The translations under genes and the position numbers were made by a program. Shown here piece after piece: positions 9,832-63,755 of a stretch of DNA of 64,000 nucleotides; the stretch's first letter is position 1, and each line of letters starts with the position of its first letter. The notes beneath the pieces are model-generated. The model saw only the letters and a list, made by a program, of their open reading frames with translations, ran no database searches and was not told where the DNA came from. The DNA comes from a virus. The DNA lies in IMG/VR virus record IMGVR_UViG_3300035698_022014, positions 11,602-75,601 of that record; one strand, given 5' to 3'.

Positions 9832-12126
9832 TTACGTAAATCTTGTTTGATCAGGCGACGTGATTGATCTGATAGGTGGCTCAGGGATGCTGTCACTTTC
9901 AGGAGTAGTACCTTCTAATGGAGGCTCTGCTCCATCAGCCCTTTCACCCACACTGGACGGGTTGTAGTTGAACTGCGGTGCGTCTATTTTCTGCTTGACT
10001 TCAGCAGGTTGAGCGCCACCGTCTGCCAATTGTATAACGTCGTCAATGTATACAATCGGTCCAGCTATATGAACATTGCCTGAACCTGTTAATCTCATTT
10101 CTGAATTGGAAGATGCATTCAATCTCCCACTTCCTGAATCTAGGAACATGGCTGTCGACTTCAATGAAAGTAGTCCACCTGAATTTATGTTTGTTGTTGT
10201 TTTTGCATTGATGAACACATTTGTTTCAGATCCTATAGAGACAAAGCTCTCTGACTTCATTGCAATCGCACTTCCTGAATTGATTCTAAGATTACCCTTC
10301 GACTGCATAGATATTGTTCCTTCGTCAGAATTGAGAAACAAGTTTTGCTTAGGACTGACAAACATGTTACCTTGTGATTTCATATGAATGCTGTCTTGTG
10401 ACTCTACATATACACCTTGGTTGCCTGTTATACTTGTCCACTCCCCACCTATTCTGATATTTTTCGACTTGAAGTTTATTGATTCGCCTGACTCAAACAC
10501 AATGTTTTTTGCTGTCCTGATGCTAATGTTTTCAACATTGGAATCGAATCCTATTGAAGCACTTCTTATGTCTGTTCGATCAGCACCATTGAGTTCAATC
10601 TTCCCTGCACTACCAATCTGTACATTACCGTGAACTATTTGCTTGTAATCGCCTTGGATTTCCTCGACCTTGTTCCCTTTAATTAACGTGTGACAATCGC
10701 CATCGATTGTGACGAGATTGTTTCCTCTTATATACACGTGATGGTTTCGCTCGTGTATATCATACGTGTCGTTGACGTTCTTGTGAGTTGTGCTCGTCGG
10801 TGCTATTTGAATATAGGAACCACTGTGGTGCCATATCATGATTCGTTCTGCACCAGGCGTATCATCGAGCTCAATCGAGTGACCTGATGCTGTCTCAACT
10901 ACTCTGTTATACGGATATTGAGCAGCATATGCAGAAGCTGGTTCTTCCCATGATGTAGTTTCAGCAGGTGTCGGCGGCGTTGTGTTCATGTATCCGCTAT
11001 ACGGATCGTTCGACGCAACTTGACCATCAGGTTGAGGCGTGTCAGTAGGTCCGCCTATAACAGAAGGGTTTTTTCTTTGGTAGTATTTGTTGATGCTGTC
11101 TACAGTAATGGTGCCGTCACTGCCACGCCATCCAGGATTATTGGTCCATGCTTGTCCGCCAACAGGATATACGATAGTGTCGCCTGATCTCGAAGCAAAT
11201 GCTGGTGCAGCTTGCATTATACCTAATCCAGATGTGTTACGATAATTCCACCTTTTTAGATACAGACCATAGGCGCGCAACTGTTCTGCAGGTGTCGAAC
11301 TAGCTATTGATTGGGGCGTGTACTTGGTTCCGTTTCTATTGTTTATGTCTGTCAGTGCATTAGACCCTAGTTGGAAAAACCCTGCATAACCAAACCTATT
11401 AATTACAGACGGATTGTAGGTGCTTTCGCCTGCAATAATTCCATAGACTTGTTCTCTTGATAGACCATATTGACTTTTCAATATCGACAATTCACTTTGA
11501 AACTCTTTGTCATTGTCGAGCGCGTCTATCTTTGCTTGCATATCAGCACCAACAAACGCTGATGAAGTTCCTTGACTATTCTCCGACTCGTTTACATCGT
11601 TGCCCCACAAGTTTCCGTTCCCGACACTACTGTGGTTTCTTATTTTGCCACCTGCTATTGGGATTTCTTTTACGCGATTTGTTTCAAGGGCCTCGTTGTA
11701 TGTCTCGTTTAAAAACTCGCCTGTTGCTAGCTTTGAAACTGGTGACAGTCCTAAATCCCTTGGTCTTGATCCTTGGGCTTGTCTATCATAATTTTCAACA
11801 GGGATTGCGCCCCATCCTGTTGTTGCAGGATCGACCAAAGCAGTGATTTGTGTTGGAATCAGGCCCAACAACATTGGCTGTTGGGCATCTCTACCATCAA
11901 CGAAGAAACCAAACATCCACGCGTTCAGCGGCGGAACAGTGAAGTTCACGTCGTGGCTTCCTATAATCAAGGTGGCCCAAGGCAGATCCTCGGTAGGGAC
12001 GTCACGGTTGGAGCCATGGATTCCAAATGCTCTGACCTGTACTCTACCTTCTGCACGCGGATCTTCGCGATTTTCAACTACACCAATAAAAAACAACGGC
12101 TGAATAAAACCTAAACCTGTATCCAT
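9832..12126 (-). CDS. Baseplate hub/needle gp5 with an internal lysozyme-fold (transglycosylase-like) domain
   Basis: GVVENREDP...GRVQVR OB fold, YPYNRVVETASGH, beta-helix repeats; insert with GESTYNP...GFFQL. Confidence 0.9.
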   Translation of the reverse strand: MDTGLGFIQPLFFIGVVENREDPRAEGRVQVRAFGIHGSNRDVPTEDLPWATLIIGSHDVNFTVPPLNAWMFGFFVDGRDAQQPMLLGLIPTQITALVDPATTGWGAIPVENYDRQAQGSRPRDLGLSPVSKLATGEFLNETYNEALETNRVKEIPIAGGKIRNHSSVGNGNLWGNDVNESENSQGTSSAFVGADMQAKIDALDNDKEFQSELSILKSQYGLSREQVYGIIAGESTYNPSVINRFGYAGFFQLGSNALTDINNRNGTKYTPQSIASSTPAEQLRAYGLYLKRWNYRNTSGLGIMQAAPAFASRSGDTIVYPVGGQAWTNNPGWRGSDGTITVDSINKYYQRKNPSVIGGPTDTPQPDGQVASNDPYSGYMNTTPPTPAETTSWEEPASAYAAQYPYNRVVETASGHSIELDDTPGAERIMIWHHSGSYIQIAPTSTTHKNVNDTYDIHERNHHVYIRGNNLVTIDGDCHTLIKGNKVEEIQGDYKQIVHGNVQIGSAGKIELNGADRTDIRSASIGFDSNVENISIRTAKNIVFESGESINFKSKNIRIGGEWTSITGNQGVYVESQDSIHMKSQGNMFVSPKQNLFLNSDEGTISMQSKGNLRINSGSAIAMKSESFVSIGSETNVFINAKTTTNINSGGLLSLKSTAMFLDSGSGRLNASSNSEMRLTGSGNVHIAGPIVYIDDVIQLADGGAQPAEVKQKIDAPQFNYNPSSVGERADGAEPPLEGTTPESDSIPEPPIRSITSPDQTRFT

Positions 12127-53649: not shown

Positions 53650-54138
53650 ATGAAAATTGAATATCGTCATGGTGATGTGTTGAGTACAGACGTCACTCAC
53701 ATTGTACATGGCTGTAATAGTCACGGAGTGATGGGTTCTGGCGTTGCTAAGATGGTCAGAGCAAAATACCCCGTTGCATATCAAAGATATGTAGATGAGT
53801 ACAACTGTGTTGGTCTTAAACTAGGCACAGTCATTCCTTCTATTCAACCTGACGGCAAAGTGATTTATAATGCCATCACACAGCAAGACTATGGTACTAA
53901 TAAAAATGTAGTCTATAATTCCATCGTACAGCAAGACTACGGTACAAGCAAAAATGTAGTTTATGTGTCGTATTGGGCGATTGCCGAAGCTTTCAGACGT
54001 ATTGATTCGGCCAATATCAAAAAGATTGCGCTGCCGATGATTGGTGCAGGATTAGCAAACGGAGATTGGAATGTAATCTCTGCAATCATCGAAAACACCC
54101 TGACACGAACATTGCCTGTGGTATACATCTACGAATAA
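53650..54138 (+). CDS. Macrodomain protein (ADP-ribose binding/hydrolase)
   Basis: GDV, HGCN..G.MG.GVA, P.IGAGLA.GDW. Confidence 0.9.
   Translation: MKIEYRHGDVLSTDVTHIVHGCNSHGVMGSGVAKMVRAKYPVAYQRYVDEYNCVGLKLGTVIPSIQPDGKVIYNAITQQDYGTNKNVVYNSIVQQDYGTSKNVVYVSYWAIAEAFRRIDSANIKKIALPMIGAGLANGDWNVISAIIENTLTRTLPVVYIYE
53866..53961 (+). repeat. In-frame 48-bp tandem duplication inside the macrodomain gene
   Basis: YNAITQQDYGTNKNVV / YNSIVQQDYGTSKNVV. Confidence 0.9.
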
Positions 54139-54292
54139 CTTTTTGTGGTCTTCGTGTCACGTTGAACAAACACCAAACGGTTGGACGATTTTATATCCTG
54201 ACAACACAAGTGCTTAGTCTCAAACTTTCAAAACGAGGGGTTGGGCTACAAGAACGCTGAATTGGCTCAACAAACAGTAGTAATTAGGATAG

Positions 54293-54323
54293 TTGACATT
54301 GTGTGATTTCCCAGGTATAAATA
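54293..54323 (+). promoter_or_regulatory. Overlapping sigma70 and late promoter
   Basis: TTGACA-N17-TATAAATA. Confidence 0.7.
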
Positions 54324-54363
54324 GTCTTACGTCTGCGAAGTTTTAACAAAGAAAGCAAACCCA

Positions 54364-54531
54364 ATGAAACAAAAGAAGAAAAAGGGCCTGCCCAAACAAA
54401 GAAACGAGTTTGTTGTGCAGCTGATTCAAAGAGCAGGAGCAGGTGCAGGAAGTCATCAGAAGTCGAAAAAGGCTTCGAGACGTGACGATAAAATGAAACT
54501 GAACAAGGAATGGTCAATCAAGGTCACTTAA
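54364..54531 (+). CDS. 55-aa basic protein, candidate alternative ribosome-rescue factor (not in the ORF track)
   Basis: MKQKKKKGLPKQRNEFVVQLIQRAGAGAGSHQKSKKASRRDDKMKLNKEWSIKVT; 3' end folds into a 24-bp hairpin. Confidence 0.6.
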   Translation: MKQKKKKGLPKQRNEFVVQLIQRAGAGAGSHQKSKKASRRDDKMKLNKEWSIKVT

Positions 54532-54620
54532 TCACAGTGTCTTTCGTTGACTGTTCCTTTTGATGTTTTATGCATTGTAACTGTCAGAACCCCCAATTAC
54601 CCAAATAGGAGGCTTGAACC

Positions 54621-54818
54621 ATGTTTCAGCTTAATAGACGCGACCTGAGACTTACTCAGGAAGAACGTGACATGATCGATGTAGCAGTTAAAGCAGGCAA
54701 TGTAAACGTCGTTGAATTGGGGAGTGTAGGCTATGTTGACAAGTTTCAACAGAAGCGGGACGATGCACGTAAAGAGCGTGCAAGATTGCGAGCGATTGAA
54801 AAGAAGGCAGAAGAGTAA
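54621..54818 (+). CDS. Hypothetical protein
   Basis: AGGAGG RBS. Confidence 0.6.
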   Translation: MFQLNRRDLRLTQEERDMIDVAVKAGNVNVVELGSVGYVDKFQQKRDDARKERARLRAIEKKAEE

Positions 54819-54820
54819 TT

Positions 54821-56650
54821 ATGACTGAAAAATTTGAAATACTGACACCACGTCAACACGTAAGGCTAAAAACAGGGATGTGGCTTGGTTCGACATCTAT
54901 CGAGGAGATCGATAGGTTTGTTGTGGGCAAGTGGGATAGAGTGTCCTATGTTCCTGCATTGTCAAAAATGATCGACGAGATTGTTGATAATAGCATCGAC
55001 GAAGCAATCAGAACAGATTTCAAGCACGCCAATAAAATAGGGGTCTCTATTGACGGTGATACTGTCACCATCGTTGATAATGGTAGAGGGATCCCACAGG
55101 ATGATATTCTAGATGTATCCACCAACGAAATGATTTCAAGACCTGTTGCAGCGTGGACAAGAAACAATTCTGGTACGAGCTTTTCAAGTGAAAGAACATC
55201 TATTGGCTCGCACGGACTCGGGGCAGCGCTTGTAAATTACATGTCAACAAGTTTTGTTGGACACACATGGCAGAATGGTAAATGCATTGAGGTAAATTGT
55301 CTCAATGGTGCTGAAACAATTGAGACAAAAACGAAGAAGAAAGAAGGGCATGGCACATCTGTATCCTTTACTCCTGATTTCAGTCTTTTAGAAGTTAGTG
55401 GAGTATTAGAGCTTGATACCGTTGCTTTGGTTGAAGATAGGTTGATGTCTCTACAATTGGCATTTCCTGAAATTCAGTTCTCGTTCAATGGAAGCAAGAT
55501 TAAGGTAACCGATCTCAAAAAGTATGCAGCGTTGTTTACTCCACAAGATGCGTCCGTAATTGTTGAAAAGACAGACGACCTATCGTTCTTCTTTGCTGCG
55601 TCTGATGACGGGTTTCGTTCAAATAGCTTTGTCAATGGTGTGAATACACGTCAGGGTGGTGTGTATGTTGACTACATCGTCAACAATGTGGTGGACGAAC
55701 TTGGTGGAATGATCAAAAAGAAATACAAAATTGAAGTTGCTAAATCCACATTGAAGAATGGGATCACCTTTGTGATGTTTGCACGTGGCTTCACAAACCC
55801 AAAGTTCGACAGTCAGACTAAAGAGAGATTGACCAATCCACTTATAGATGTTCGGGAACATTTTGAGAAATCAGGCACGAAACCTTTTCAACACATTGCT
55901 AAGAGACTGTTTGTGGCACATGATATCATCGAGCCGATCATTGCTGCTCAGATTGCAAAGAAAGAGCAACAAGATCGACGTGAGGCACTTCAAGCACAAA
56001 AGAAACTCAAGAAGGTTAAAGTTGCAAAACACATTTCTGCCTCCTCGCCTGATGCGACACTCTTCTTGACTGAAGGCCAATCTGCATCAGGTTTTTGTAT
56101 CAAAGTTCGCGACCCAAAAATGCACGGGATGTATCCTTTGCGTGGTAAGGTAATGAACATCTGGGACATGAAGGCATCAGACGTTTTGAAAAACAAAGAA
56201 CTTAGTGAACTTGTCGCTGTCCTCGGACTGAACATTAACGATCCGAGCAGCGCTGAATTTGCTCACTATAAGAACATTGCAATCCTCGCTGACGCTGATA
56301 AAGACGGTGGACACATTGCTGCTCTTCTGGTAACATTCTTCTATAAGTTTTGGCCAAAACTGTTGTCTGATGGTCGGATCAGAATCACGCGAACACCTAT
56401 TATGATCTCCACAAAGGGCAAGGAGACATCGTGGTTCTACACATATAAGGAAGCAGAGGAATTCAAAAAGGATGCAACTAATGGGTATGTACATCGCTTC
56501 ATAAAAGGTCTTGGATCTCTTGAAGAGAGTGAGTATTCTGTGATTCTGAACGACCCAACAATGGATCAGGTTACAGTCGATGATGTAGGACTGTTTGAAG
56601 TGATGTTTGGCAGTGACTCGAGCCTCCGCAAAAAGTTCATGCTGACATGA
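54821..56650 (+). CDS. Type II topoisomerase large subunit (fused gp39+gp60)
   Basis: EIVDNS.DE, DNGRGIP, FDSQTKE, TEG.SA, PLRGK, DADKDG.HI, KGLGS. Confidence 0.95.
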   Translation: MTEKFEILTPRQHVRLKTGMWLGSTSIEEIDRFVVGKWDRVSYVPALSKMIDEIVDNSIDEAIRTDFKHANKIGVSIDGDTVTIVDNGRGIPQDDILDVSTNEMISRPVAAWTRNNSGTSFSSERTSIGSHGLGAALVNYMSTSFVGHTWQNGKCIEVNCLNGAETIETKTKKKEGHGTSVSFTPDFSLLEVSGVLELDTVALVEDRLMSLQLAFPEIQFSFNGSKIKVTDLKKYAALFTPQDASVIVEKTDDLSFFFAASDDGFRSNSFVNGVNTRQGGVYVDYIVNNVVDELGGMIKKKYKIEVAKSTLKNGITFVMFARGFTNPKFDSQTKERLTNPLIDVREHFEKSGTKPFQHIAKRLFVAHDIIEPIIAAQIAKKEQQDRREALQAQKKLKKVKVAKHISASSPDATLFLTEGQSASGFCIKVRDPKMHGMYPLRGKVMNIWDMKASDVLKNKELSELVAVLGLNINDPSSAEFAHYKNIAILADADKDGGHIAALLVTFFYKFWPKLLSDGRIRITRTPIMISTKGKETSWFYTYKEAEEFKKDATNGYVHRFIKGLGSLEESEYSVILNDPTMDQVTVDDVGLFEVMFGSDSSLRKKFMLT

Positions 56651-61193: not shown

Positions 61194-61301
61194 ATGAACA
61201 TTCTACAAACAACATCATCGCTGCAGTACTGGGGACCGAATAATATCAATTCAGGTCGCATTGCATCCGTGAGCAAGATAGCCAAGGCTGCTTTAGAATA
61301 G
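61194..61301 (+). CDS. 35-aa late peptide (possible leader peptide; not in the ORF track)
   Basis: TATAAATA at 61158-61165, purine-rich RBS, MNILQTTSSLQYWGPNNINSGRIASVSKIAKAALE. Confidence 0.5.
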   Translation: MNILQTTSSLQYWGPNNINSGRIASVSKIAKAALE

Positions 61302-63040: not shown

Positions 63041-63703
63041 ATGAAACTATTTATATGCTGCCATTGTGGTAGTGAGCGTAAGAATGTAAACTCGTGGAAA
63101 AATCACGAACGAACTTGTCCATCTAATTCAAGCCGAAAATACAAAAATGGTATGACTGGTAAAAAAGGATCTAATCAACATACTAAGGCCAAAGAGTTGG
63201 GCAAACCTAAACCAGAAGTGTCAACAGAAACGCGCAACAAAATTAGAAATTCCAATATTGACCGAAAGCATACTCAGCAAACCAAAGATAAAATATCAAA
63301 GGCAAGATTGAAATACCTTGCTGAAAATCCTGACAAGGTTCCTTACAAATTAAACCATTATAGCAAAGGCCCGTCATATCCTGAAAGATATTGGAAGAAA
63401 GTTTTTGATAAGTTAAGAATTGAATATGTCGAACAATACCGAATACACACCTATCAGTTAGACTTTGCCTTAGTAGAAGAAAAGATTGACATTGAAATAG
63501 ACGGAGAACAGCATTATCAAGACGAAAGAATAGTAAAGAGTGATAAGCGTAGAAACGAATATCTTGAAGGTCTAGGTTGGAAAATAATAAGAATTCGTTG
63601 GTCAGAATATAAAAAGCTGATTGACAAACAAGATAGAATAGCTTATGTTGCTAGAATATTAAACAAAATACGGACGGGTACCCAAGTGGACAAAGGGAAC
63701 TGA
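63041..63703 (+). mobile_element. Free-standing homing endonuclease (zinc finger + NUMOD3-like + DUF559/Vsr-like nuclease)
   Basis: C..C...H...C, KHTQQTKDKIS, YQLDFA...IEIDGEQH...D..R..YL...GW.I.RI.W; the last 10 codons overlap tRNA-Lys. Confidence 0.85.
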
Positions 63704-63755
63704 CTTTTAATCAGTCGCGTAAGCTTCGAGGGTTCGAATCCCTCCCCGTTCACCA
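63672..63755 (+). tRNA. tRNA with Lys(TTT) anticodon on a Tyr-type class II body
   Basis: GGACGGG/CCCGTTC acceptor, ACTGA-CTTTTAA-TCAGT, 12-nt variable region, GAGGG-TTCGAAT-CCCTC, ACCA. Confidence 0.88.

Follow-up and report, generated by a model that had tools for sequence, protein, structure and literature searches.

A mini-gene for a 55-amino-acid (aa) basic protein, located in a 64,000-nucleotide (nt) stretch of DNA (positions 11,602 to 75,601 of IMG/VR record IMGVR_UViG_3300035698_022014; hereafter the window) from the 75.6-kb contig of an uncultured virus, has its stop codon in the loop of a long RNA hairpin formed by its last codons (Table 1). Comparison with relatives from large phages and bacteria gives strong support to a layout like that of the ribosome-rescue genes arfA and brfA, which would let the message lose its stop codon. 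The explanation as a whole, namely that an undescribed basic protein is produced from a stop-losing message, is controlled by transfer-messenger RNA (tmRNA), and likely acts in back-up ribosome rescue, is judged to stand an even chance of being correct.

The open reading frame (ORF) is kept in relatives at 98%, 71%, and 63-64% identity, and its differences from the 98%-identical homologs L001 and L002 are mostly synonymous (three synonymous changes and one D-to-N replacement); the mini-gene is a real coding gene, which bears out the 55-aa Lys/Arg-rich ORF described in a first-pass annotation of this DNA. The protein contains 13 K and 4 R (17 Lys/Arg) and 4 D/E, and its conserved core consists of a K-rich N-terminus, an RNEFVVQLI helix, a Gly-rich loop, and a basic helix running through L46-x-K48. 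A putative promoter of its own precedes the mini-gene, where TTGACA, a 17-nt spacer, and TATAAATA together occupy positions 54293-54323, 41-71 nt 5' of the start codon. Both motifs of the dual early/late promoter previously claimed for this site are present, and the hexamers are identical in L001 and L002 despite four substitutions in the spacer, but a simple consensus scanner applied to 54150-54900 called no promoter and no terminator. The motif TATAAATA is also found just 5' of the homologs in L004 and L005.

Folding with RNAfold returned exactly the hairpin that had been proposed from the sequence alone, with TAA in the loop. The stem comprises 22 of 24 pairs arranged as 14+4+4 (18 Watson-Crick, 4 G-U, two 1x1 mismatches), and an outer 7-bp helix extends it by pairing AUGAAAC (54493-54499) with GUUUUAU (54565-54571). 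The minimum free energy of 54490-54580 is -30 kcal/mol, compared with -15.4 +/- 2.9 kcal/mol in 200 dinucleotide shuffles (z = -5.0), none of which (0/200) folded as well. The sole change in the hairpin of L001 and L002 is a G-to-A substitution in the 3' arm that turns a G-U pair into an A-U pair. With 22 pairs and only two 1x1 mismatches, the stem provides the roughly two turns (at least 20 bp) of mostly continuous double-stranded RNA expected of an RNase III substrate, and its position in the 3' coding region, from codon 48 onward and past what is conserved in the protein, is the ArfA-type arrangement. The window shows no in-frame terminator before the stop of the BrfA type, because the stop precedes both the 3' arm and the U-rich tail.

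Table 1. Coordinates (window positions) of the mini-gene, its RNA structure and its flanking features, and homologous loci joined to tRNA-Lys(UUU).
Feature	Position or loci	Strand	Basis or remark
-35-like hexamer TTGACA	54293..54298	+	by-eye assignment
TATAAATA, with -10-like TATAAA after a 17-nt spacer; also matches the T4-type late-promoter motif	54316..54323	+	by-eye assignment
ORF for the 55-aa basic protein, stop codon included	54364..54531	+	member of an uncatalogued family
Conserved protein core, codons 1-48	54364..54507	+	alignment A3
Hairpin 5' arm, codons 48-55 (K E W S I K V T)	54505..54528	+	RNAfold
Hairpin loop UAAUCAC (7 nt), opening with the stop TAA (54529-54531)	54529..54535	+	RNAfold
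Hairpin 3' arm, non-coding	54536..54559	+	RNAfold
U-rich tail TTTTGATGTTTTAT	54558..54571	+	broken; GUUUUAU (54565-54571) partly pairs upstream
65-aa ORF with its own strong AGGAGG ribosome-binding site	54621..54818	+	next gene, outside the element
T4 gp39-type topoisomerase II large subunit	54821..56650	+	context only; top identity 47%, KVP40-like Vibrio phages
Mini-gene overlapping tRNA-Lys(UUU)	L011, L014-L016, L019-L021, L023, L027-L030, L032, L036, L039-L041, L050		
Mini-gene adjacent to tRNA-Lys(UUU)	L017, L065		

Homologous loci were found by pattern scans and with sub-family alignments, and 70 distinct loci (45 viral, 25 bacterial) were compared after anchoring them on a conserved His, such that codon H+17 corresponds to K48 of the window protein, where the window hairpin starts. 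Throughout this set, the conserved core usually ends where an RNA structure begins. Hairpins start mostly about -9 to +18 nt from codon H+17, and the stop may be located in the loop, the 3' arm, or further 3'; it lies inside a hairpin of 11-26 pairs in 11/45 distinct viral loci, and a hairpin precedes the stop in 2/45. The arm sequences of L004 and L005 (63-64% identity) are unrelated, yet in each the final codons are covered by a perfect stem of 13 bp and an inner stem of 5-6 bp whose loop contains the stop (TAA or TGA), and where one locus has an A-U pair, the other has G-C. L006, L008, L012, L033, L038, and L043 show this arrangement too (z of -4.4 to -6.5); ten homologous loci other than L004 and L005 fold with z = -2.8 to -7.9. 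Most of the homologous hairpins have 17-26 pairs, in which a 1x1 mismatch commonly separates an outer stem of 11-14 bp from the inner one. In other relatives (L007, L011, L014, L021) the hairpin is wholly in frame and the stop comes later; that of L021 has 21 pairs, including G-U pairs and mismatches. The hairpin on which the first-pass annotation relied is therefore kept in diverged relatives, with compensatory changes. Among viral family members not joined to a tRNA, the stop falls in a hairpin in 11/25 compared with 15/281 control ORFs from the same loci (Fisher p = 4e-7; p-values are indicative only, since pattern scans supplied the loci and these lack phylogenetic independence).

Individual hairpin-form loci show further variation. 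An extra A in an A-run of L049 (about 2590-2700), a close relative of L005, shifts the frame of the mini-gene and leaves the hairpin intact, and may represent an assembly error or a real slippage site. One large phage contig (IMGVR_UViG_3300020084_000003, 284,776 bp; L034 and L037) carries two diverged family copies, one with its stop in a 21-pair hairpin and the other with TAG in a short GC-rich hairpin followed by TTTTTT. The full-length tails encoded by hairpin-form genes often finish in non-polar residues resembling the ssrA tag (VAA, LVA, KAA, IAA, LAA, LIA, KVA; e.g., in L006, L008, L017, L033, and L004, and in P0003, P0012, P0015, P0040, and P0045). The product read to the stop might thus also be unstable, like full-length ArfA; alternatively, the GCN codons may simply stabilize the top of the stem.

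Two other kinds of structure take the place of the hairpin in relatives. At 18/45 viral loci the frame enters a tRNA gene and its stop (TGA or TAG) lies within the tRNA, usually in the D-arm, and at two more viral loci 4-6 nt separate the stop from the tRNA. In 20/20 cases the tRNA at the junction is Lys(UUU), among 250 same-strand tRNAs called by ARAGORN in those loci, and never the neighboring Lys(CUU). The tRNA is entered in all three reading frames, producing tails such as WTVS*, GPIAELV*, and MDR*, so that the junction is conserved and the tail peptide is not. Maturation of the tRNA by RNase P must cut the messages of this form 5' of the stop. Two loci deserve mention on their own account: L042 may enter a Lys(CUU)-like tRNA that ARAGORN did not call, and the mini-gene of L050 (about 2600-2700) reads 47 nt into a tRNA-Lys(UUU) that apparently has a long variable arm. 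In the Burkholderiales, an in-frame hairpin followed by at least 5 T lies between the core and the stop in 13/25 distinct loci, usually about 35 nt past the core, compared with 1.6 such in-frame T-runs expected from flanking coding sequence. The in-frame stops of the bacterial genes are a few to 58 codons past the core, and the terminators are 5-55 codons before the stop. The in-frame T-run test was used for these GC-rich loci in place of a generic count of hairpins near stops, on which 32/74 controls score. Because the same layout occurs in three mechanistically different forms, with the core usually ending at the structure, production from a stop-less mRNA is the most economical common explanation.

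Under the proposed mechanism, the message of the window gene would often be translated without a stop codon. The window hairpin would be cut 5' of TAA, with host RNase III as the most likely enzyme for such a double-strand-specific cleavage, which would remove the stop and spare the whole conserved core, while uncut message would be read to TAA. By analogy with known systems, healthy cells would degrade the product after tmRNA tagging, and untagged protein would build up only when trans-translation is saturated or disabled. Burkholderiales relatives would reach the same loss of the stop through an intrinsic terminator inside the frame, and many large-phage relatives through an RNase P cut at the overlapping tRNA-Lys(UUU). 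The layout, the basic C-terminal helix, and the rtcB and tRNA-Lys contexts together suggest that the protein may bind ribosomes stalled with an empty mRNA channel and help to release them, providing a back-up rescue during RNA damage (e.g., when anticodon nucleases or mRNA decay swamp tmRNA in infection). The fullest version of this scheme can be offered only tentatively. It would make the window gene the hairpin form of a new rescue-factor family in large phages and Burkholderiales with three interchangeable ways of losing the stop (RNase III, terminator, RNase P), whose product is made only when tmRNA is overwhelmed, and which phages carry, often beside their own tRNA-Lys, to keep ribosomes working under host RNA-cleaving defenses or mRNA decay.

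The protein belongs to a family that literature searches did not find described. A profile search of 1.84 billion representatives yielded 87 relatives of about 40-90 aa (E up to 1e-3), which occur in large phages and in Burkholderiales, where the profile matches one place per genome in 54/301 sampled genomes. The family motif combines a K-rich N-terminus, [PK]-x-R-N-x-x-V, a Gly-rich loop, and G-x-H-x-K-x-x-K-A-x-R-R-x-x-K-x-x-L-x-K, and is present in the window protein; seven columns of alignment A3 (83 sequences) are near-invariant (R13, N14, G29, H31, K33, K36, R39). A local hidden Markov model built from A3 recovers the window ORF with E = 2e-25, the window sequence itself being part of A3. 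Neither the window protein nor ten bacterial relatives matched Pfam, NCBIfam, or PHROGs. In a Pfam scan of 83 relatives, only 2/83 matched any model, DUF7230 (PF23876), and did so weakly (best E = 9e-4); the window protein did not match it. Neighbors in the ESM Atlas are all annotated as 'hypothetical protein', and one neighbor cluster has DUF7230 in 18% of its members. A distant kinship with DUF7230 is possible; the term itself was found in no paper. Searches of phage records gave little: the window region had no megablast match in 50,697 records, tblastn of the ORF produced only two weak matches (Sinorhizobium phage Phosso, E = 7e-3; a Synechococcus phage, E = 2), and tblastn of a typical member, P0015, had none. 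No cultured phage with the gene was identified in these searches, in which a low-complexity filter may hide some. One apparent member of a 90% cluster, the 588-aa P0092, is RecJ and seems to be a clustering artifact. Given the family alignment, AlphaFold2 folds this small, very basic protein into a predicted helix-loop-helix (helix 15-23, Gly-rich loop, long basic helix 35-54) at a mean predicted local distance difference test score (pLDDT) of 84. In ArfB and SmpB, a comparable basic C-terminal helix goes into the empty mRNA channel.

The bacterial genes have a recurrent neighbor. An rtcB gene (PF01139, E = 1e-131) lies on the same strand, at most 1.5 kb upstream, in 11/30 bacterial loci, and often ends 8-70 nt before the mini-gene. 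In several loci a conserved open frame of about 300-400 aa (stop to stop) was also observed between rtcB and the mini-gene or directly upstream (L081:530-1501, L073:302-1504, also L075 and L078); it matched nothing in Pfam or NCBIfam, and the module may have it as a third component. ArfA was found in 3/301 Burkholderiales genomes, none of them family-positive, which is too few for a test of co-occurrence.

Several results weigh against the interpretation of the mini-gene as a rescue gene with a stop-losing message. Homology to ArfA was not borne out by any profile comparison: PF03889 matched 0/83 family members in a Pfam scan extending to E of 1 or more, a six-frame search of the contig with PF03889 returned nothing, and hhalign of A3 against an ArfA alignment gave a probability of 0.2%, with only GaGaH aligned to GKGSY. 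The family profile likewise had no match among PDB sequences at E up to 10. Neither the phage contig nor a near-identical relative, complete at 208 kb, yielded an RNase III gene, so cleavage of the hairpin would hinge on a host enzyme. Roughly one locus in four (L052-L059, L074, L079, L081, L095) ends in a normal stop without any structure. The exclusive junction with Lys(UUU) in 20/20 loci is not predicted by a pure model in which any processing site will do. ArfB was present in 26/54 family-positive and 151/247 family-negative Burkholderiales (odds ratio 0.59, p = 0.09, uncorrected for phylogeny or genome completeness; the family-negative ArfB-positive tally includes one unpublished genome, G206, on which no claim rests), a weak trend in the expected direction that is not significant. 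Finally, because TAA sits in the loop, a transcript that is left uncut, or that is terminated, retains its stop like any ordinary mRNA, and with a U-rich tail behind it the window hairpin could be a plain transcript end. Among the loci with plain stops, the phage subgroup L052-L059 (MKPRNHVVLAMI...DQRGSYNDAK) combines an ordinary stop with neither hairpin nor tRNA, and the stop-less layout is therefore not obligatory for the protein. The claim of the first-pass annotation, a phage-encoded rescue factor with arfA-like feedback, is partly supported: the regulatory layout has strong comparative backing (the conserved hairpin position, the in-frame terminators, and the tRNA-Lys overlaps), ribosome rescue by the protein is an inference, and the protein is not an ArfA homolog.

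The position of the stop in the loop is also what gives substance to the simplest competing account, in which an ordinary gene for a small basic protein (nucleic-acid-binding or ribosome-associated) ends in a hairpin that serves as a transcript end (terminator or 3'-exonuclease block) and overlaps the gene by chance or compaction, without non-stop control in the phage. Such an arrangement explains the window locus taken alone, since a transcript ended or stabilized after the 3' arm is a normal mRNA; it also agrees with the plain stops of some family members and with the 5% of control ORFs in phage loci that have a stop in a hairpin. The U-tracts that it would call for are inconsistent, being present after the hairpins of the window, L005, and L037 and missing after those of L008, L012, and L033. 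A stem of 22 pairs, AU-rich and followed by the broken tail TTTTGATGTTTTAT, is unlike the typical short GC-rich terminator, and none was called by the scanner. Compaction is at odds with the 61-nt spacer after the hairpin, where space is not constrained, and the in-frame hairpins (L007, L011, L014, L021), the bacterial terminators, and the tRNA overlaps are left unexplained, which together make this account unlikely. The tRNA overlaps take a central place in another alternative, that the protein is an accessory of tRNA or RNA repair, which holds or shields tRNA-Lys(UUU) or broken RNA ends for ligation, or counters an anticodon nuclease, and whose stop-less layout only times or limits synthesis. 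tRNA-Lys(UUU) is a classic target of anticodon nucleases, and RtcB-type ligases can seal such breaks; the Lys(UUU) identity of all 20 junction tRNAs, the frequent presence of rtcB upstream in bacteria, and the strongly basic, helical character of the modeled protein all fit this role. However, there is no tRNA near the window gene (the nearest tRNA-Lys is 9 kb away) or near many other members, common descent of the tRNA arrays may account for part of the link to tRNA, the one small RtcB-linked partner known so far (PrfH) is itself a rescue factor, and no reason is given for a stop-less message. A repair accessory is accordingly considered decidedly unlikely.

Two regulatory explanations seem much less probable again. 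The abundance of Lys codons at the N-terminus, and the position of many relatives directly before tRNA-Lys, sometimes with a hairpin between (L011, L014, L021), would suit a leader peptide that is functionless in itself and whose translation senses the supply of Lys-tRNA and steers folding, termination, or processing of the downstream RNA in the manner of attenuation. This is hard to reconcile with near-invariant residues other than Lys in 83 sequences (R13, N14, G29, H31, R39), with a confident AlphaFold2 model, with a window gene that precedes an unrelated ORF and a topoisomerase gene and no tRNA, or with the terminator closely 3' of the gene in some bacterial loci; a simple terminator would moreover give the wrong sign of feedback, because low Lys-tRNA would increase termination. 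We regard it as highly improbable. An Arg/Lys-rich RNA-binding peptide that binds its own 3' hairpin or a tRNA and autoregulates, or that works as a small antiterminator like the arginine-rich-motif peptides of lambdoid N proteins, would account for the constant adjacency of structure and gene, and the basic-helix part ERRAEKIALRKQ of L028 presumably resembles the arginine-rich motif of lambda N, a resemblance taken here as a lead only. Nevertheless, loop and stem sequences differ between homologs, so that there is no common recognition element and no conserved RNA target among the homologous hairpins; the tRNA, hairpin, and terminator forms have in common only a structure before the stop, and the family is far shorter than N proteins. 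An explanation of this kind has very little to recommend it.

The phage that carries the window gene is a distant T4-like myovirus, because its gp39-type topoisomerase gene is at best 47% identical to those of KVP40-like Vibrio phages. The stretch occurs in five sequencing runs, all DNA, from salt-lake metagenomes, with no RNA run among them. A macro-domain protein gene at 53650-54138 (PF01661, E = 6e-9; phrog_335 'phosphatase') lies just 5' of the putative mini-gene promoter. The 65-aa ORF between the hairpin and gp39 had no family match in library searches and is missing from L004, where the mini-gene directly precedes gp39. The closest tRNA-Lys is a Lys(UUU) gene 9 kb downstream (63672-63755, called at 84 nt); a second family copy was looked for near it and none was found, and a 35-aa peptide at 61194-61301 that was checked as a family member is not one. 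A search of the phage contig for rtcB found none.

Gene layout alone suffices to recognize the family, which is widespread among large phages that have not been cultured. In bacteria, about one-fifth of the sampled Burkholderiales carry it as a single copy, and ArfA was present in only 3/301 genomes of this order. If the protein does rescue ribosomes, a new family would be added to the rescue factors, tRNA excision would be usable to program non-stop mRNA, and rescue would be tied to RNA repair (rtcB) and to the phage-host arms race over tRNA-Lys. A simple search rule, 'conserved small ORF whose core ends at a processed RNA structure', would then be available for further factors. To our knowledge, the only back-up rescue factors are ArfA, ArfB, ArfT, BrfA, and PrfH, all found by genetics in single species, and literature searches found no report of a phage-encoded factor of the ArfA type.

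Each form of the layout has a counterpart in known systems. The tRNA-Lys form resembles mitochondrial tRNA punctuation, in which the preceding mRNA is ended by tRNA excision, with loss or truncation of its stop, and polyadenylation then completes the stop; the polyadenylation step is not expected in the phage relatives, and the comparison is not applicable to the hairpin form of the window. The bacterial relatives downstream of rtcB echo rtcB2-prfH, in which a gene for an RtcB RNA ligase is paired with one for a ribosome-rescue factor (PMC9304027). PrfH differs in being a release-factor homolog with a GGQ domain, whereas the family consists of 50-aa peptides without one, and the phage contig has no rtcB. 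ArfT of Francisella tularensis, a rescue factor that is likewise very small and basic, lacks homology to ArfA, has a KKGGSTNKK tail, and is regulated unlike ArfA; it is likened to the window protein by description and not by sequence, and illustrates that factors of this kind evolve independently and go unseen in homology searches (PMC6299226). The small protein BrfA (YqkK) of Bacillus subtilis is encoded by a gene with a rho-independent terminator before the stop codon, which yields a non-stop mRNA (PMC6881298, PMC8012679). This is the layout of the 13/25 Burkholderiales relatives with in-frame terminators, although BrfA is from another lineage with no homology detected, and the window gene has no such terminator. 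More generally, arfA and brfA messages lose their stop by RNase III cleavage or in-frame termination, and tmRNA tags the product, which accumulates only if trans-translation fails (PMC8012679). ArfA itself (YhdL, PF03889), the RF2-dependent factor of E. coli and other Proteobacteria, differs from the window protein in having no sequence or profile similarity to it, in its KGKGS motif, which the window protein lacks, and in fold, that of the window protein being predicted as helix-loop-helix. Differences extend to the stop, which is downstream of the hairpin in arfA and in the loop in the window gene, to the carriage of the window gene by a phage, and to the use of tRNA-Lys and RNase P by its relatives. 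The likeness had been said to lie only in size, charge, and layout, which is accurate: ArfA is likewise small and basic, with an active form of about 55 aa, and arfA likewise has a hairpin of about 22 bp over its 3' coding end, right after the conserved part, with a C-terminal tail that is dispensable and non-conserved. Folded for comparison, the hairpin of E. coli arfA starts at the W-E codons and shares the build common among the family hairpins, its stems of 13 bp and 8 bp being separated by a 1x1 mismatch, and the window hairpin form, with its stop in the predicted loop, is its closest structural parallel.

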